Shown: positions 7,968 to 41,990 of the stretch, piece by piece
Numbering within the stretch: the stretch's first letter is position 1
Layout: each line of letters opens with the position of its first letter
Assembly (NCBI GenBank): GCA_944391135.1
Contig: CALXSL010000010.1
Coordinates: 14,225 to 78,224 of the forward strand
Reading direction: 5' to 3'
Length of the DNA stretch: 64,000 nucleotides
Origin: an uncultured Opitutales bacterium
GTDB lineage: Bacteria; Verrucomicrobiota; Verrucomicrobiia; Opitutales; Intestinicryptomonadaceae
Program-made: the position numbers and the translations under genes
The notes under the pieces: generated by a model
Told to the model about the DNA's origin: nothing
Database searches by the model: none
The model's input: only the letters and a program-made list of their open reading frames with translations

Positions 7968-8006
7968 AGCTCGGGTGGCGGAATGGTAGACGCAGCGGAC
8001 TTAAAA
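7968..8006 (+). repeat. attL: 39-bp direct repeat = truncated 5' half of tRNA-Leu(UAA)
   Basis: AGCTCGGGTGGCGGAATGGTAGACGCAGCGGACTTAAAA is identical to 41905-41943. It ends at the last base of the anticodon loop, and the sequence diverges afterwards. Confidence 0.9.
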
Positions 8007-8046
8007 GCTAAGATTCATCCCTTTATTTATGCGGCTTTTACGAAAA

Positions 8047-8068
8047 GTGTTGCAGAAGTGTTGCAGAG
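8047..8068 (+). repeat. Tandem GTGTTGCAGA(A)GTGTTGCAGAG, candidate arm-type integrase site (attL side)
   Basis: The same tandem decamer occurs at 41765-41785 in the same orientation, each within ~140 bp of an att core. Confidence 0.55.
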
Positions 8069-32650: not shown

Positions 32651-33418
32651 TCAGCAAAAATCCGTTATTTCAACTGTTGCAGGAACGTTAAGCATCTTTT
32701 CGGCCACGGCCCAGGTCGCCCGAAGGTCGCAAAGCAGATACTCTTCCGCGCACTTGCGCATCACAGGGTCGCCGCCCTCAAAATGCTGCGCGAAATTCTC
32801 GCCCGTAACCTCGCCCTCGTATTTGCCGGGGACGCCGAAAAACTTTGCGGCATTGTCGAGGCTCAGCTTGTAGCCGTATTCTCCGCAGGCGAATTTCTCC
32901 ATGAGGTCGATAAAATCTACCGACAAAAAACGCCCGTTGTAGATTGACGTGGGGAACTGCACGCCGCGCATCCACGAGCGGCGGACAAGAAACGGAACGT
33001 CGAAGCCCGCGATATTCCAGCCGACAAAGTTGTCGCCGTGCGTGCCATAGAACTCCCAAAACTTTTTAAGAATGTCGGCCTCTTCTCCGGAAAGGATTGT
33101 CTCTTCGCTTTCGGTCTTTATGCCGATTGCGACAACCCGCCCGCAAAGGGCGTTGAGGGCCGCCTTTGACACTACTTTCGCTTGGTATTCAAGCCTGGCC
33201 TTTTCATAGGCCTCCTCGTGCTCCTTAACGCGCTGCGGATACTCTTCCTCTGCCTCACGGATTTTCTCGGTAATCTTATCGGGATTTTTCAGGTTGCCCA
33301 CCTTAACCGCCTTCGGGTCGAAGGGCGGCAGGGGCTCGAAATTCCTGAAAGGCTCGGCAAGCTCAAGGGCCTTGTCCCTAATGCCCGCAGTTTCAATGTC
33401 GAATACGATGAATTTCAT
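32651..33418 (-). CDS. 3'-5' exonuclease related to PolB exonuclease domain
   Basis: Internal ATG 33418. MKFIVFDIETAG (ExoI DxE), GWNIAGFDVPFL (ExoII). Confidence 0.7.
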   Translation of the reverse strand: MKFIVFDIETAGIRDKALELAEPFRNFEPLPPFDPKAVKVGNLKNPDKITEKIREAEEEYPQRVKEHEEAYEKARLEYQAKVVSKAALNALCGRVVAIGIKTESEETILSGEEADILKKFWEFYGTHGDNFVGWNIAGFDVPFLVRRSWMRGVQFPTSIYNGRFLSVDFIDLMEKFACGEYGYKLSLDNAAKFFGVPGKYEGEVTGENFAQHFEGGDPVMRKCAEEYLLCDLRATWAVAEKMLNVPATVEITDFC

Positions 33419-33437
33419 AATGCGAACCTTTCTTTGG

Positions 33438-33923
33438 CTAGAATATGTCCTCGTCCTCGACAGCTGCCGCCGGTACATTGCCGCCCTCGGCTTTCAGGAA
33501 CTGGTCGATTTTGTTTGTATAATATACAATCGGTTTGCCGTCCGCATCCGTCTTGTTGCTCTCCCACGAATCAACCTTGAGCTTCGCCCTGCCCCGGCGG
33601 CCTATGGCCTCTTCTACAAGCCTGCCGAAGTTCTTGCCTTCGCCGACAAGGTTAATCGCGGCAAAGAATCTGTTTATGAAGTATTGCGCCTTGCTGTGCA
33701 GGCTTATCGTCTCATAAACATTGGTTACGCCGCAGTCGGGATTGGTGCATTTGAGCTTGGCCTCCATCATCGGGCAGTTCCATTTCTTGTTGTGCTTCTT
33801 GTTGATTTCGACCACTTCGAAATCGACAATAGTGCCCGCAGGCATCAGGTTGTATGTGTACTCGTTTTCGACGATTTCCACTTCGTCGTCCCAGGAATAT
33901 GCGCGTTCTATTTTGTCTGACAT
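33438..33923 (-). CDS. SSB-like protein (DUF669-type) with acidic C-terminal tip
   Basis: 161 aa ending AAAVEDEDIF, reminiscent of the SSB DDDIPF tail. Positioned between the AAA_24 ATPase and the exonuclease, as in Sak4-type recombination modules. Confidence 0.55.
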   Translation of the reverse strand: MSDKIERAYSWDDEVEIVENEYTYNLMPAGTIVDFEVVEINKKHNKKWNCPMMEAKLKCTNPDCGVTNVYETISLHSKAQYFINRFFAAINLVGEGKNFGRLVEEAIGRRGRAKLKVDSWESNKTDADGKPIVYYTNKIDQFLKAEGGNVPAAAVEDEDIF

Positions 33924-33949
33924 TTTTATAAATCTTTCTGTTTTTAAGG

Positions 33950-35107
33950 TTATTTGCTTGTGCGGTTGTTATTCAAAGACGCCTCTATTTTCTCCCAGTT
34001 GGCGTCCTTAGTCATCTTGGCGATAAGGTCGGCGGGAATGTCCTTGAACTCTGTGCCGGGCTGGACGTAGGCCGTTTTCTTGGCGTTTTTGCCGTAGAGA
34101 TAGGCCAGCAATTCGGCTTCGGTGAACTGCCCGAGCGCGAGCAAGTCGGAAAGCTTTTCATGCGGAGTTCTTTCGACATTTGCCGGAGGCGGCGGTGTTT
34201 CGTCTTTCGGAGCTTCCTGTTTCGGTGCCCCGTCGAGCTTTTGGCCGCCCTGCGGCAGATACGGAAGTATTGCTTTGATGTCCGCGTCGAACTCATCCGC
34301 AACGCCTGTCCAGCGGCTTTTGGCGAGGCAGAAAGACGCCGAGTTTGCACATATCACGCGCTTCTTGCCGCCGCTTGCCTTGCCCTTGCCGTTGTCTTTC
34401 GTCTCGACGTAGGTCTTGCGGAACATGAAAAGCAGCGCGTCGCACCACTCCACTACAATGGGGTTGATTTTCTTTGTAAGCTTCGGCTCATAGCGGTCGA
34501 ACGCTATGCCTTCGTCCGGCGGCTCGATTTTGCGCAAAGTCTGGTGCGCGAGGAATACGACGTTCTTTCCTGCGGCGATGCAGGCGTCGGCAAGCTTTAA
34601 CAGCTTCCTGAACTCTTCCTCAAGATAAGTGTAGCCTTTGCCGTAGCCAAATTCCTCGATGCCGCCTTTCTTCCATTTTGCGCAAATATACTCGGCGCAT
34701 TTCATTTCCGCCCAGTCGGCAGTGTCGAGCACGATGGTGTCGAACTCGCACGCCGCGGCTTCGGACATGACGGACAAAAGGCCCTGCCAGTCGTCCACAA
34801 ACACGCGCGGCGTGTCGATGTGCGTTGACGACCTTTCGGCATCGACTATTAGAGCGTTAGGGAACTGCGAGCCGAGCGTAGTTTTGCCGACGCCGCTTTC
34901 CCCGTAGCAGACAATTTTCTGCGGTTCTATGATTTTTCCGGTGATAATATTCATATTGTATAATCCTTGTTTTTGAAGGTTGTAAATTTCCACGGCGCGC
35001 TCATGCGCCTGGGCGTGGGTGAGGTTGTTTTTCGGGTCTTTGGAATCTCCCATGCAAATTGCGCGGAGTTCCAAAAATTCATAATTTGCCGGGGTTTTGT
35101 CCTCCAT
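33950..35107 (-). CDS. AAA_24 / Sak4-like RecA-fold ATPase
   Basis: P-loop IVCYGESGVGKTTLGSQFPNALIVDAE. ATG 35107 lies 2 nt after the upstream stop. An alternative start is ATG 34954. Confidence 0.7.
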   Translation of the reverse strand: MEDKTPANYEFLELRAICMGDSKDPKNNLTHAQAHERAVEIYNLQKQGLYNMNIITGKIIEPQKIVCYGESGVGKTTLGSQFPNALIVDAERSSTHIDTPRVFVDDWQGLLSVMSEAAACEFDTIVLDTADWAEMKCAEYICAKWKKGGIEEFGYGKGYTYLEEEFRKLLKLADACIAAGKNVVFLAHQTLRKIEPPDEGIAFDRYEPKLTKKINPIVVEWCDALLFMFRKTYVETKDNGKGKASGGKKRVICANSASFCLAKSRWTGVADEFDADIKAILPYLPQGGQKLDGAPKQEAPKDETPPPPANVERTPHEKLSDLLALGQFTEAELLAYLYGKNAKKTAYVQPGTEFKDIPADLIAKMTKDANWEKIEASLNNNRTSK

Positions 35108-35109
35108 TG

Positions 35110-35301
35110 TCAGCCGTTTACGTATTCCTCCATCGCAGAGAGCGGCATACAGTTGCACCACATCAGCAGTTCGCCCTCATCTTGTTCCCTGCACAGCTTG
35201 TGGGCAAAAGCCTTTAAAAGCCTGATGTCCGAAGCATCGGACATACTAAGCCTGATTTTTCTTGTTGACTTCCTTGTCTGTTTTTCCTTTTGTGTTTTCA
35301 T
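35110..35301 (-). CDS. hypothetical small protein
   Basis: 63-aa ORF, basic N-terminus. Confidence 0.4.
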   Translation of the reverse strand: MKTQKEKQTRKSTRKIRLSMSDASDIRLLKAFAHKLCREQDEGELLMWCNCMPLSAMEEYVNG

Positions 35302-35329
35302 AATTTGACTTGCTTTTTAGTTTTACTTG

Positions 35330-35365
35330 AGCCGTTCGGTTGCAGCCGAACGGCTTATTTTTTTT
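35330..35365 (+). terminator. Perfect 10-bp hairpin + T8 (terminator-shaped only on plus strand)
   Basis: AGCCGTTCGG-ttgcag-CCGAACGGCT-TATTTTTTTT. On the coding (minus) strand the run is A8 upstream of the hairpin. Confidence 0.35.
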
Positions 35366-35677
35366 CTATGCATCGCCATAGCCATAGCCATCGCCATCGC
35401 CATAGCCATAGCCATCGCCATCGCCATAGCCATCGCCATCGCTAGAGCCATCGCCATAGCCAGAGCCATAGCCATAGCCATAGCCATCGCCAGAGCCATA
35501 GCCATAGCCAGAGCCAGAGCCAGAGCCATAGCCAGAGCCAGAGCCAGAGCCAGAGCCATAGCCATCGCCAGAGCCATCGCCAGAGCCATCTCCATAGCCA
35601 TCGCCATCGCCAGAGCCATAGCCAGAGCCATCGCCAGAGCCATTGCCAGAGCCAATTTTTACGATTTCATCGTCCAT
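35366..35677 (-). CDS. (Gly-X)n low-complexity acidic protein, X = Asp/Ser/Tyr
   Basis: 103-aa ORF: MDDEIVKI, then Gly at every second residue. ATG 35677 lies 19 nt inside the upstream gene. Same strand and packing as the surrounding early operon. Confidence 0.5.
   Translation of the reverse strand: MDDEIVKIGSGNGSGDGSGYGSGDGDGYGDGSGDGSGDGYGSGSGSGSGYGSGSGSGYGYGSGDGYGYGYGSGYGDGSSDGDGYGDGDGYGYGDGDGYGYGDA
35372..35655. repeat. ~47 tandem hexanucleotide units (GGC-GAT/TAT/TCT on minus strand)
   Basis: Uninterrupted period-6 array on the plus strand (gccatc/gccata/gccaga), with only single-base variants. Confidence 0.95.
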
Positions 35678-36045
35678 ACCGGCACGCTTTCTATGCTCTT
35701 TTTAGCGGTCTCTGTTACCCGCAACACCTCTATAACCTCCGTGAGCTCCACCTGCGGAACAGCTACGGGGAACTTGCAACTTGACGGTGTGCTTGTCCCG
35801 CTTACGGCAAGCTCAGAAAGACTTGCGGCGCCTGACCAATACCAGATTCGGCGGGCATTCAAAAGCATCGCCTCTTTGCCATTGCGCTCTTTTAAATATC
35901 CGGCAAATACGCCGGCAGAATATGTGCGCGCAATTACGTACGGCATCCCGTCAATATTTTGCGCTAATGCGGAATTTTCCGCCGACGATTTTTTGACGTA
36001 TTTTTCGCCGTTAACTTCAATCTCGTTCATGTTGATTTCGCTCAT
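35659..36045 (-). CDS. conserved phage protein of unknown function
   Basis: 128 aa. YVIARTYSAGVFAGYLKERNGKEAMLLNARRIWYWSGAASLSELA looks like a globular conserved phage family. Confidence 0.55.
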   Translation of the reverse strand: MSEINMNEIEVNGEKYVKKSSAENSALAQNIDGMPYVIARTYSAGVFAGYLKERNGKEAMLLNARRIWYWSGAASLSELAVSGTSTPSSCKFPVAVPQVELTEVIEVLRVTETAKKSIESVPVWTMKS

Positions 36046-36078
36046 GTTTTTTCCTGTTTTTTTGTTTTAGGTTCAAGT

Positions 36079-36261
36079 TTAATACGTTCCGTATAGGCTT
36101 GGCTCGCTTAGCCACATAAGCAGGCTGTACACCATCATCAGAACAAAGCCGCCTACAATCAGCACCCCGCCAATAAATTCCCAACGGGCCGCACTTACAT
36201 GTTTTCTTGCCTCGGCAGCGCACTCTTCGGGCGTTTTGAAACGTTGAGCGTAGTCAATCAT
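36079..36261 (-). CDS. small membrane protein
   Basis: Internal ATG 36261 (ATGA overlap). 60 aa with one TM (FIGGVLIVGGFVLMMVYSLLMW). Confidence 0.45.
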   Translation of the reverse strand: MIDYAQRFKTPEECAAEARKHVSAARWEFIGGVLIVGGFVLMMVYSLLMWLSEPSLYGTY

Positions 36262-36506
36262 GCCGAGACCCTCTTTTTTCTGACGGCTGCCAAACGCAGG
36301 CATGCCGCACGGCTGTAAAGGTGCGCGCCCTTGCCGCCGGGCTTGATTTCAGGATATTTGCGCGCGATATTAAACAACGCGCGTTTCGACCTAATGCCCA
36401 AAATGCGCATGGCGTCGTCGCTCCTGATGTCGTCCTCGCCGCTTTTGTTTAACGACAGGCAAACCGCGCAGACGATAGCGTCAATATCCTCTTGATCGAG
36501 CGTCAT
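36258..36506 (-). CDS. HTH (excisionase/AlpA-like) protein, first gene of leftward early operon
   Basis: 82 aa. AMRILGIRSKRALFNIARKYPEIK...HLYSRAACLRL. An SD-like GGAGAGGAAA lies upstream. Confidence 0.5.
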   Translation of the reverse strand: MTLDQEDIDAIVCAVCLSLNKSGEDDIRSDDAMRILGIRSKRALFNIARKYPEIKPGGKGAHLYSRAACLRLAAVRKKRVSA

Positions 36507-36598
36507 TCTATTTCCTCTCCGGCTTGTTTTGAGTTGCCCTCTTCTATTGGGGTTTTTAATTGGTTTGATTCTTCACAAATATATGCTTTTGTGTGCTT

Positions 36599-37039
36599 AT
36601 GATTGCCAATATCGCCTTGAATATTAAGGACTTCTTCTTTGAAAATAGTGAAACCATTGCCGCCGGCATTATTACAAGCGTTACGGTTGCCTTTTTTATT
36701 TTCGTCGTAAGGAAATGTTGTATTGGCGTGAAAAAGCGGACAAGAAGGAGCCTCAAATGCAAACAAGCCAATATTGTCAAAAAAATCAGCACCCTCACCT
36801 CCGACGAAATCGGCCTGCTCAAAGCCCTTTGCAAAAGCAGGCTCGTGCAATACCCCTTGAGAGAGAAACAGCTTACTGAAGTCAAGCACCTCCAACGCTT
36901 GGGGTTGATAGAATGCCTCACTCCTGAGACCGAACTCGTAAAGCATGTTGCTACCTACACCATTCCCGCCGAAATTAGAAGCCATGTCGGAAATGCGATT
37001 CTCTATATTTCCAACAAAAATCATGATGATTGCCAGTAG
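36599..37039 (+). CDS. SieB-like superinfection-exclusion membrane protein, paralog A (strand assignment uncertain)
   Basis: TM SETIAAGIITSVTVAFFIFVV, then ISTLTSDEIGLLKALCKSRLVQYPLREKQLTEVKHLQRLGLIE...YTIPAEIRSHV. This matches the recalled SieB C-domain pattern (LSxxExxxLxxF...GII...Y.I.P). An in-register antisense ORF exists. Confidence 0.4.
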   Translation: MIANIALNIKDFFFENSETIAAGIITSVTVAFFIFVVRKCCIGVKKRTRRSLKCKQANIVKKISTLTSDEIGLLKALCKSRLVQYPLREKQLTEVKHLQRLGLIECLTPETELVKHVATYTIPAEIRSHVGNAILYISNKNHDDCQ

Positions 37040-37095
37040 CGTTATTTTTATAAAATCCATAGCTACTTACCCTCCTGTGCGGATTTTGAATTTAT

Positions 37096-37545
37096 TTGCC
37101 TTTCCCTTTTAACCAGAGTTGGCTTTCTTTTGTGATTTCTGAAATTATTGCCATGACCGTTTCGGCGATTATCTCCTCCGGCATTGCTTTCGCAGCTGGC
37201 AGGTGTTGGGAGCGCCGCAGCGCAAATATCTTCCGAAAGAACATTGCGCAAGACATATACGCGTTTATAGATTCCTGCACGGACTACCAAAAAAGCTTCA
37301 TCGCCTATATCGCGAAAGAACCGAAAGGCAGCGTCTTTTCGCCCAGATGCTTTGAGGACAAAACATTCATTTCCTTTGCCGTCAGCCGAGAGTTTCTTGT
37401 ATGCACAAATACGGACTCCAAAATATATGCGCTGACGCCTCTTGTTCTTAACATACTCCAAAACGAAGGCAAAGAGCTTGTAAGCGGCATACCCTGCACC
37501 AAAGAAGAATATCAGGAAAAGAAGAAGAAATTTTATAGTGTCTAA
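37096..37545 (+). CDS. SieB-like membrane protein, paralog B (strand assignment uncertain)
   Basis: TTG start. SEIIAMTVSAIISSGIAFAAGRCW aligns with the paralog A TM. It is followed by FIDSCTDYQKSFIAYIAKEPKG...YALTPLVLNIL and a Lys/Glu tail. Confidence 0.4.
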   Translation: MPFPFNQSWLSFVISEIIAMTVSAIISSGIAFAAGRCWERRSANIFRKNIAQDIYAFIDSCTDYQKSFIAYIAKEPKGSVFSPRCFEDKTFISFAVSREFLVCTNTDSKIYALTPLVLNILQNEGKELVSGIPCTKEEYQEKKKKFYSV

Positions 37546-37650
37546 TGCATCCATAGCTACTTCCCCTCCGGCTTGTTTTCAGGTGTCTTTGTGGTAGGGC
37601 GCCTTGCCTCAACCGCTTGACTTTTAATAGTGCGTTGGAAAAATACATTC

Positions 37651-37989
37651 ATGGAAATCAGCAAATTTGTATCCGAGGTTTTAGTTGGAATTTTCGAGGG
37701 CGTTTCCGACGCCCAAGTCAAAATTGAAGAGAAAGGTGGAATAATTAATCCGCCCGCGCACACCGACACGCGCGGCGAAGTTTTTGCCAATGTCAGCAGT
37801 GCAACCAGCCAGCGCAAATTGTGCGTCGCAGAATTTAACGTCGCCCTTTCGGTCACGAACAACGAACAAAAGGGCGGGAAGATTGGAGTTTTGTTCGCAA
37901 GTCTCGGCGTCGGCGGGAAGCTCGAAAGCAGCGTCGCCGCATCCAATGTTACAAGCGTCAAGTTCTCCGTTCCGTATGTACTGCCTTAG
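37651..37989 (+). CDS. trypco2-like small beta-rich protein
   Basis: 112 aa. MEISKFVSEVLVGIFEGVSDAQVKIEEKGGIINP ... EFNVALSVTNNEQKGGKIGVLFASLGVGGKLESS...VKFSVPYVLP matches the recalled trypsin-co-occurring-domain-2 family pattern. Confidence 0.5.
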   Translation: MEISKFVSEVLVGIFEGVSDAQVKIEEKGGIINPPAHTDTRGEVFANVSSATSQRKLCVAEFNVALSVTNNEQKGGKIGVLFASLGVGGKLESSVAASNVTSVKFSVPYVLP

Positions 37990-38129
37990 CTCATCTTCAT
38001 CGTAGGGCTCCACTAGTTGCGGCGCGGTTGTATCGCGCGCAATATACACATTGCCTTCATTGTCCGCAGATATGCCGATTATCGCATCAAGCAATATAGC
38101 GGCTCGTTTTACGCAGATAAATGTTTTCA

Positions 38130-41718: not shown

Positions 41719-41764
41719 TTTTCCGAAAATCAAAAGGTTCTTTTAAGGAATATTACGGCAAAAA

Positions 41765-41785
41765 GTGTTGCAGAGTGTTGCAGAG
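41765..41785 (+). repeat. Tandem GTGTTGCAGAGTGTTGCAGAG, candidate arm-type integrase site (attR side)
   Basis: Same decamer pair as 8047-8068, in the same orientation. Confidence 0.55.
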
Positions 41786-41814
41786 TTTACAACAAAAAAT
41801 GCCGATTTTTGCAC

Positions 41815-41904: not shown

Positions 41905-41943
41905 AGCTCGGGTGGCGGAATGGTAGACGCAGCGGACTTAAAA
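41905..41943 (+). repeat. attR: 39-bp direct repeat (inside intact tRNA-Leu)
   Basis: Identical to 7968-8006. Confidence 0.9.
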
Positions 41944-41990
41944 TCCGCCGGTGATGAGCCGTACGGGTTCGAGTCCCGTCCCGAGCACCA
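41906..41990 (+). tRNA. tRNA-Leu (anticodon UAA), type II with long variable arm, encoded CCA
   Basis: Acceptor stem GCTCGGG/CCCGAGC, anticodon stem-loop GCGGA-CTTAAAA-TCCGC, T arm GGGTTCGAGTCCC, 3' ACCA. Confidence 0.9.

Follow-up and report, generated by a model that had tools for sequence, protein, structure and literature searches.

A DUF6948-linked (Gly-X)n repeat gene in a prophage of an uncultured Opitutales bacterium and its possible role as a disordered tail for a predicted Sm-like partner

The 64,000-nucleotide stretch of contig CALXSL010000010.1 analyzed here (hereafter, the window), which comes from an uncultured Opitutales bacterium (assembly GCA_944391135.1), contains a prophage of approximately 34 kb carrying a (Gly-X)47 repeat gene on the minus strand (35366..35677). 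Comparison with related loci indicates that this open reading frame (ORF) is a real protein-coding gene under selection. By its sequence and position, it is assigned to a large unnamed phage family, the DUF6948-linked (Gly-[Ser/Tyr/Asp])n proteins. The most informative fact about the repeat gene is that it is the near-obligate, start-overlapping downstream partner of the gene for DUF6948, a predicted Sm-like β-barrel. Confidence in this part of the explanation, i.e., the gene, its family, and its partner, is very high. The overall explanation, in which the product would be a disordered, polyanionic, Tyr-rich tail provided in trans for the Sm-like partner, is judged about evenly balanced between right and wrong.

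The coding sequence of 103 codons plus stop is defined by the ORF list, by hexamer parsing, and by the conservation of its frame in relatives. It starts with an ATG at 35677, 19 nt within the upstream ORF, and ends with a TAG at 35368–35366; both positions, as given in the original prediction, can be read directly from the sequence and the ORF list. An eight-codon leader (MDDEIVKI) precedes 47 GGC-NNT hexamers, and the ORF tool translates the gene as MDDEIVKIGSGNGSGDGSGYG...GYGDA. The hexamers form an uninterrupted period-6 array of 47 GGC-KMT units (35371..35654, minus strand), as indicated by codon counts and by Tandem Repeats Finder (score 330). The latter reported periods of 12 and 18, which are multiples of 6, and no other repeat in the window comes near the array in strength. 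Parsing also recovered the single AAT, AGC, and GGA variants that had been predicted. The first codon of the 47 units is GGC in 45 cases, GGA in one, and AGC in one, and the X codons comprise 16 TCT, 15 TAT, one AAT, and 16 GAT (15 plus one that follows AGC). X is Ser, Tyr, or Asp in 46 of the 47 units, and no Ala codon is present.

The protein contains 46 Gly, 17 Ser, 17 Asp, 15 Tyr, one Lys, and no Arg, with 15 GYG triplets in 94 residues, an isoelectric point (pI) of 4.05, and a net charge of approximately −17.5. Because it has only one Lys and no Arg, it is undetectable by standard tryptic proteomics. The codons of the array are far more homogeneous than those of the neighboring phage genes. 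Eight such genes use GAC and GAT at a ratio of 61:25 and TAC and TAT at 26:29, and only 10 of their 71 Ser codons are TCT. The preference for C-ending codons that had been ascribed to these neighbors thus holds for Asp but not for Tyr, for which both codons are used about equally. An RTX-type GGXGXD calcium-binding repeat was considered and ruled out, since the Asp of that motif follows a Gly by two residues, a position that is always Gly again in the strict Gly-X pattern. An exact-protein look-up returned no record of the 103-residue product, which was either missed by gene callers or is a unique allele. At the DNA level, positions 33000–38000 of the window have no near-identity match among GenBank phages.

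The upstream gene (35659..36045, minus strand) encodes a 128-residue protein assigned to DUF6948 (Pfam PF22253, E = 2e-30), and its stop codon lies at 35659–35661. A set of loci seeded with the DUF6948 protein was assembled, comprising 80 loci from viral contigs and 14 from species-representative genomes. Among the 76 seeded loci with at least 150 nt of downstream sequence, a Gly-X array follows DUF6948 in at least 73 (approximately 96%), one of the three apparent exceptions (L017) being a script artefact. The median gap between the DUF6948 stop and the array is 8 nt in the seeded loci. In total, arrays were found in 97 loci; 82 of them are complete, with a median length of 78 residues and a range of 24–192. 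According to the names of the genome bins, the hosts extend from Moraxellaceae, Acidobacteria, and Polyangia to Bacteroidales and Bacillota, and public data hold at least 5,595 homologous clusters of DUF6948. The window gene shows the features of the family: it lies on the same strand directly 3′ of DUF6948, has a short leader followed by strict Gly alternation, and has a start codon built on a conserved Trp codon.

The two genes overlap by 19 nt (35659..35677, minus strand). In most loci, the repeat gene takes its ATG from the last base of one DUF6948 codon and the TG of the next, which encodes a conserved C-terminal Trp; in the window, these are a Val and the Trp codon, GTA TGG. Among 82 non-redundant loci, 59 have A before this TGG, compared with a third-position background of 25% (p = 6e-19), and in 14 further loci G or T at this synonymous site still gives a GTG or TTG start. 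Such an excess of A at a synonymous site indicates that the start codon of the repeat gene is under selection. Most loci have an ATG and a leader of at most 12 residues. Loci without an overlap have their own ATG past the DUF6948 stop, in the same frame in L034 and after a 4-nt spacer in another frame in Ralstonia phage NK-7. Since the repeat does not stand in one constant frame relative to DUF6948, the two are separate polypeptides, and the varying frame in L034 and NK-7 also led to the rejection of a frameshift fusion with DUF6948, which had been considered as a candidate. The overlapping arrangement implies that expression of the two genes would be coupled and coordinated.

When the three forward frames were translated in 35 divergent loci, Gly-X with X = Ser, Tyr, or Asp was the sole constant reading. 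The +1 frame varies by phage and gives MALAMA, TATAPA, GTGPGP, or VTVPV. Over the 97 arrays with 3,548 units, X is Ser in 1,344, Tyr in 1,081, and Asp in 828 (92% together); Asn, Phe, Ala, and Glu occur 40–60 times each, and Lys and Arg total 17. Gly is encoded mainly by GGC in 76 loci, by GGG in 14, and by GGT in seven, and the X codons are TCY, TAY, and GAY, with a third base (T or C) that is uniform within each array. The differences between phages thus fall exactly on the sites that are synonymous in the Gly-X frame, and the hexamer is constrained at positions 1, 2, 4, and 5, which argues for selection on the amino-acid pattern.

The frequency of Ala (GCY) points in the same direction, since this residue is expected from the K (G or T)/M (A or C) alphabet of the X codons. 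Across the family, 40 Ala were observed, whereas 365 would be expected if positions 4 and 5 were independent, i.e., an approximately ninefold depletion, although the units are not independent of each other and the p-values of this test are inflated. The depletion recurs across lineages, and in the window array no Ala was observed versus approximately five expected. This result argues for selection on the protein and not on the DNA. Stop codons interrupt only the +2 frame, in 18 of the 82 complete arrays, and one reverse frame, in 71 of the 82; that most other frames lack stops is due to the composition of the arrays.

The choice of Gly-X as the coding frame in the original prediction is well founded, as this frame is conserved over about 100 related loci and the other open frames give unrelated peptides. 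In relatives the Gly-X frame stays open, and the array lies in a tightly packed, same-strand coding context; the stop codons or noncoding setting that the original prediction named as counter-evidence were not observed. The accompanying idea that the array is a recent, slippage-prone microsatellite rather than an optimized gene is not supported, because the family is old and widespread, its Gly/Ser-Tyr-Asp pattern is selected, and Ala is avoided. What is young is the DNA of the array; the gene itself is old.

Two spurious ORFs also run through the window array, namely a 110-residue (Ala-Met/Leu)n frame (35323–35655, minus strand) and a 247-residue antisense (Ile-Ala)n frame (35327–36070, plus strand), which extends across DUF6948. 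Neither would be open but for the composition of the repeat, and gene callers could be misled by both.

The array varies in length, as had been suggested. Among relatives that share the leader, the codon flavor, and an identical or 98%-identical DUF6948, the array comprises 14 units in L102, 22 in L002, 46 in L103, and 47 in the window, although short-read collapse could exaggerate these differences. The frame is kept in all four arrays, three of which have ...GDA at their end. Other pairs differ in different ways: L037 and L042 are distinguished by an internal rearrangement at constant length, and L033 and L055 by unit substitutions. In another lineage, six independent contigs encode an identical 108-residue product, which shows that the arrays are not assembly noise. 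The array DNA evolves in concert within each phage, with whole hexamers being gained and lost. Exact-pattern scans of metagenome and viral collections yielded no further alleles of the window leader.

Sequences of this family are already public, but they are labeled hypothetical, misnamed, mis-framed, or unannotated. The gene pair is also present in cultured phages. The homolog in NK-7 (XCO36015) is annotated as a “fibroin heavy chain-like protein”, and the repeat gene of Pectobacterium phage Ymer (WCD42787) is annotated as hypothetical. In Iodobacter phage phiPLPE, the repeat is unannotated and lies between gp84 and gp83 (L099:about 1175-1409). Gene 25 of Chlorobiaceae phage CV-1-33 (L100:2843-3088) presents the array in the wrong Met-Ala-Leu-Ala frame, and a gene call at L003:972-1085 is in that frame as well. 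Thirteen of the 94 seeded contigs, about 1 in 7, stop within 150 nt past DUF6948 (L006, L010, L014, L029, L038, L045, L056, L069, L071, L073, L081, L082, and L092), and L001, from the window’s own lineage, stops five units into the array. Short-read assemblies thus break in the array, so the family is under-represented and truncated in metagenome gene catalogs.

That the original prediction knew of no described phage protein of this type agrees with searches of Pfam, PHROGs, NCBIfam, and the literature, all of which returned no description. The three databases contain no model covering the repeat protein and gave only sub-threshold composition matches. TrAA12 (PF22807) scored 24.3 bits against the window protein, under its cut-off of 30.9, and Sulphur globule protein (PF17228) and Keratin_2_head (PF16208) remained below the gathering cut-offs for relatives. 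In the literature search, DUF6948 and DUF7666 (a domain discussed below) were not found, and neither the repeat strings nor a phage “fibroin heavy chain” occurred in any relevant paper. A tblastn search of phages with a repeat protein gave no match, the query being masked by the low-complexity filter. A phmmer search of 1.84 billion representatives with the repeat protein gave only 296 matches at E ≤ 1e-3, a composition-corrected number that is unusable as a family count. What appears to be new here is that a putative low-complexity tail of a predicted Sm-type protein has a gene to itself and takes the form of a strict dipeptide repeat, its function being a prediction.

Structure prediction gave very different results for the two partners. 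The AlphaFold2 model of the repeat protein, based on a 25-sequence alignment, has a predicted local distance difference test (pLDDT) value of 35.6 and no secondary structure, and the protein is probably intrinsically disordered. In the confident model of DUF6948 (pLDDT 88.4), a helix precedes bent strands, and a further helix is inserted. In a Foldseek search of the PDB with this model, the top 50 matches were all Sm/LSm proteins (E = 5e-3 to 3e-2, probability ~1.0), with template modeling (TM) scores to the target of up to 0.68. In a viral structure library, proteins with an “Sm-like domain” appear after the DUF6948 proteins themselves. Judging from these models, DUF6948 is probably an Sm-like, ring-forming, nucleic-acid-binding β-barrel. 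Its near-invariant residues (R40, R65, R66, W68, Y69, W70, K91, and F92) are rich in Arg and aromatic side chains, which would be compatible with binding of nucleic acid or of a Tyr/Asp peptide.

In the proposed explanation, the repeat protein would be supplied in trans as a low-complexity tail to DUF6948. The aromatic GYG stickers and the dispersed Asp residues would bind the Arg-/aromatic-rich surface of the partner multivalently, Asp would also keep the chain soluble, and the number of units would set the valency. Once bound, the repeat might compete with RNA or single-stranded DNA (ssDNA), in the manner of the acidic C-terminal domain during the autoregulation of Hfq, or it might connect the rings of the partner to form a higher-order assembly or a condensate; both options may hold. 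Since the downstream neighbors are replication and recombination genes, such an action would be placed at the onset of phage DNA metabolism. This specific mechanism is tentative and is considered well short of probable. A bolder version is unlikely. In it, the two genes would form a cassette, carried by phages of many bacterial phyla, whose products would together assemble a condensate containing nucleic acid or serve as a tunable mimic of nucleic acid when replication and recombination begin, with the valency adjusted through the in-frame hexamer array.

The closest parallel is provided by Acinetobacter baumannii Hfq, in which a long disordered C-terminal domain, made of GGFGGQ repeats and an acidic tip, extends from the Sm core, and shortening of the repeats alters RNA binding, autoregulation, and fitness (PMC11617691). 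The pair described here resembles Hfq in combining a small Sm-type barrel, as predicted for DUF6948, with a long, Gly-rich, aromatic, probably disordered repeat that contains acidic residues. Yet, important differences are present. The window repeat is a separate polypeptide encoded by an overlapping ORF with its own start codon and is not covalently attached. Its unit is a Gly-X dipeptide with Tyr, Ser, and Asp instead of the A. baumannii hexapeptide with Phe and Gln, its acidic residues are spread through the repeat and not placed at the tip, and DUF6948 shows no sequence similarity to Hfq. In Escherichia coli Hfq, RNA and the acidic C-terminal tip are competitors for binding to the basic rim of the ring.

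Covalent (Gly-Arg)n C-terminal tails are also found in the eukaryotic SmD1 and SmD3 proteins, where they are methylated and read by Tudor domains. These proteins share with the phage pair the association of an Sm fold (predicted here) with a strict Gly-X dipeptide repeat; however, the charge is opposite, with Arg in SmD1 and SmD3 and Asp, Tyr, and Ser in the window protein, and no evolutionary link is implied. FUS low-complexity domains are similar in their dense GYG triplets, Gly/Ser spacers, and predicted disorder. In FUS, however, charge is nearly absent and the spacing of motifs is irregular, whereas the repeat protein is a short bacterial-viral protein (37–200 residues) with 17% Asp, no Gln, no richness in Asn, and strict alternation. 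Of the resemblances raised in the original prediction, those to FUS and to silk (see below) each lack at least one defining feature.

Several observations weigh against the view of the repeat as a tail for an Sm-like partner. The low AlphaFold2 confidence for the repeat protein is consistent with disorder but is not proof of it. The Sm assignment of DUF6948 rests on weak Foldseek E-values, the query-normalized TM-scores are only 0.35–0.46, and neither single DUF6948 sequences nor a 36-sequence profile matched LSM, Hfq, or Sm proteins of the PDB (E up to 10). The DUF6948 protein of the window has a pI of 6.3 and is nearly neutral overall, so an electrostatic attraction to the repeat is not obvious. 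The leader is unconserved where it does not overlap DUF6948 (e.g., MKRWHKPS, MSRLVNNKN, and MTATASNK), and no docking motif is therefore visible. In L025, which has the same flanks as L024, an internal stretch of approximately 30 codons is out of frame (SRVRVRV...) before the array returns to the Gly-X frame, reflecting either an assembly error in the repeat or a compensating pair of indels.

A further point of this kind is that the same repeat, when searched for with the window protein, is found fused to unrelated small domains. One of them is DUF7666, and at least one DUF7666-repeat protein has no DUF6948 neighbor; the link to DUF6948 is thus not absolute, and the repeat may act independently. 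Another is a domain of approximately 50 residues with a GAC..G..W motif (P0001, P0007, P0017, and P0096). P0017, which has an extra N-terminal domain, is encoded directly after DUF6948 and before AAA_23 and YqaJ genes. In gut Bacteroidales and Bacillota phages, the repeat is fused to a domain of approximately 150 residues, always just after DUF6948. This domain is C-terminal of the repeat in L094:4246-4962, L095:594-1298, L091, and L093 and N-terminal of it in L088:4309-5052 and L090. It contains the motifs CYIAKVG..FAHG and WH.LTGSC.GR..FC, the C-terminal one of which resembles the GAC..G..W motif of the smaller domain, and it has no Pfam or PHROG match. A TIGR02996-like segment is presumably also among the fusions. 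Because the repeat can stand on either side of a domain, it seems to be position-independent, like a tail or linker.

The wider context of the gene is that of an integrated phage. The 5′ part of tRNA-Leu(taa) (41906–41990) is repeated exactly, over 39 nt, at 7968–8006, approximately 34 kb to the left of the intact tRNA; this copy is probably the att duplication bounding the prophage. The motif AAGTGTTGCAGAG is common to 8045–8067 and 41764–41786. Between the tRNA copies, the minus strand encodes a terminase, a portal protein, a tape-measure-like protein, a primase/helicase, and an SNF2 helicase; a 3′–5′ exonuclease and a Sak4-like annealing ATPase are encoded in the same interval. Small regulator-like genes near 38 kb flank the repeat gene on one side and the Sak4 module on the other, and its earlier description as part of an early operon is therefore fair. 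Downstream of it, the gene for the Sak4-like ssDNA-annealing ATPase (33950..35161, minus strand; phrog_124, E = 1e-47) opens the recombination/replication module. Across the loci, the downstream neighbors include DnaB, helicases, Sak4 (AAA_24), DUF2800, SSB, YqaJ, RecT, HNH, and methylases.

Directly 3′ of the stop codon, a terminator scan and RNA folding identified an A-run followed by a 13-bp GC-rich hairpin (35328..35365). A canonical intrinsic terminator, i.e., a hairpin plus T8, is formed on the plus (antisense) strand only. On the sense strand, the A-run precedes the stem and there is no U-tract, and the minus-strand fold has an energy of −22.5 kcal/mol (z = −4.2). The same layout is kept in L002, L102, and L103, with a different stem sequence. 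Candidate roles of this element are an antisense terminator, a 3′ stabilizer, or a mosaic junction. The modules that follow the array are Sak4 and a phrog_2698 protein in the window, RecT and DUF2800 in L102 and L103, and an RHH-like gene in L002. These four phages have identical or 98%-identical DUF6948 proteins and the same leader despite their differing downstream recombination modules, so the array and hairpin coincide with a mosaic boundary.

Four other readings of the repeat were weighed. It could be a free-standing nucleic-acid decoy in which Asp, resembling phosphate, and Tyr, resembling bases, would fill the ssDNA- or DNA-binding clefts of proteins of the host (e.g., SSB, RecBCD-type nucleases, restriction enzymes, or ssDNA-sensing defense proteins) and so protect recombination and replication intermediates, DUF6948 being just a co-expressed neighbor. 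The charge of −17.5 over 103 residues with 15 Tyr and no Arg would suit such a role, as would the near absence of Lys and Arg family-wide, the position of the gene at the head of recombination/replication modules in many phages, and the occurrence of the repeat alongside domains besides DUF6948. A further argument for it comes from T7 gp2.5 and SSB proteins, whose acidic aromatic C-terminal tails bind ssDNA-binding clefts. The repeat protein is also an acidic early phage gene product, like T7 Ocr and ArdA, but these are rigid and carry the charge pattern of B-form DNA, and no sequence or family match was found for the repeat protein. Its charge density is well under that of characterized DNA mimics, and known mimics are rigid and folded while the repeat protein is predicted to be unstructured. 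The approximately 96% co-occurrence and the overlapping start point to a function tied to DUF6948, and Pfam, PHROG, and NCBIfam gave no match for the repeat protein, no search with PADLOC or aimed at anti-defense families having been made. On balance, the decoy is quite unlikely. A self-assembling material is less credible again. In this case, Gly would line one face of a β-strand and Ser, Tyr, and Asp the other, and silk-like fibrils or a gel would form a structural scaffold in the infected cell, independent of nucleic acid. The period-2 alternation is retained in phages of very different hosts, the depositor of NK-7 named the homolog after fibroin, and weak sub-threshold composition matches to Sulphur globule protein and Keratin type II head were obtained. 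As in Bombyx mori fibroin heavy chain (GAGAGS/GAGAGY), Gly occupies every second position and Ser and Tyr are among the X residues. However, Ala, the main X residue of silk crystallites, is essentially absent and selected against (40 versus 365 expected), and Asp makes up about a quarter of the X residues, which would bring like charges together on the face used for packing. No strands are predicted by AlphaFold2, and the window protein has neither a signal peptide nor terminal domains and is approximately 100 residues long compared with approximately 5,000 for fibroin. Moreover, growth by whole hexamers gives period-2 automatically, with no structural requirement needed.

The two remaining readings question the product itself. 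If translation were incidental, the array would act at the DNA or RNA level as a recombination or mosaic-junction hotspot, as an mRNA binding array bound by the upstream protein, or as a codon run that paces ribosomes and times the expression of the downstream recombination genes. The near-identical codons within each array, the location of the array and hairpin at a mosaic boundary (Sak4, RecT, or RHH downstream), and the stable hairpin after the stop codon would all be in line with this reading. It is nevertheless highly improbable, because the variation between phages is confined to synonymous Gly-X sites with codon positions 1 and 2 fixed, the depletion of Ala is inexplicable at the nucleotide level, the start codon is under selection, and the repeat is fused in frame to folded domains elsewhere. 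Finally, the relevant product might be another one, either the (Ala-Met/Leu)n peptide or a DUF6948-repeat fusion made by frameshifting or readthrough. The MALAMA frame is open for 110 residues in the window, with a TTG start two codons past the DUF6948 stop and in the same frame; it is annotated in CV-1-33 and called in L003, and phrog_18306 weakly matches both DUF6948 and the Gly-X segment. Against this stand the unrelated +1 peptides among phages, the stops in the +2 frame (18/82) and in one reverse frame (71/82), and a frame relation that is −1 in most loci, the same in L034, and altered by the 4-nt spacer in NK-7. No conserved slippery site was seen in the overlap, and this reading is scarcely credible.

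Whatever the mechanism, DUF6948 and the repeat are among the commoner uncharacterized gene pairs in tailed phages, as the repeat follows almost every DUF6948 examined, and the repeat gene is systematically missed, mis-framed, or cut by assemblers. The arrays are a case of protein-level purifying selection acting on microsatellite-like DNA, in which the number of units is a heritable and quickly adjustable parameter. If the partnership with an Sm-like protein is true, the pair would be a simple two-component system for studying how low-complexity tails tune nucleic-acid chaperones or seed bacterial condensates. If the condensate or mimic cassette is true, it would be a bacterial-virus counterpart of the eukaryotic combination of Sm/LSm proteins and low-complexity domains in ribonucleoprotein granules. 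Among prokaryotic viruses, the repeat would also be the first strict dipeptide-repeat protein found in nature to have a defined role in the cell.

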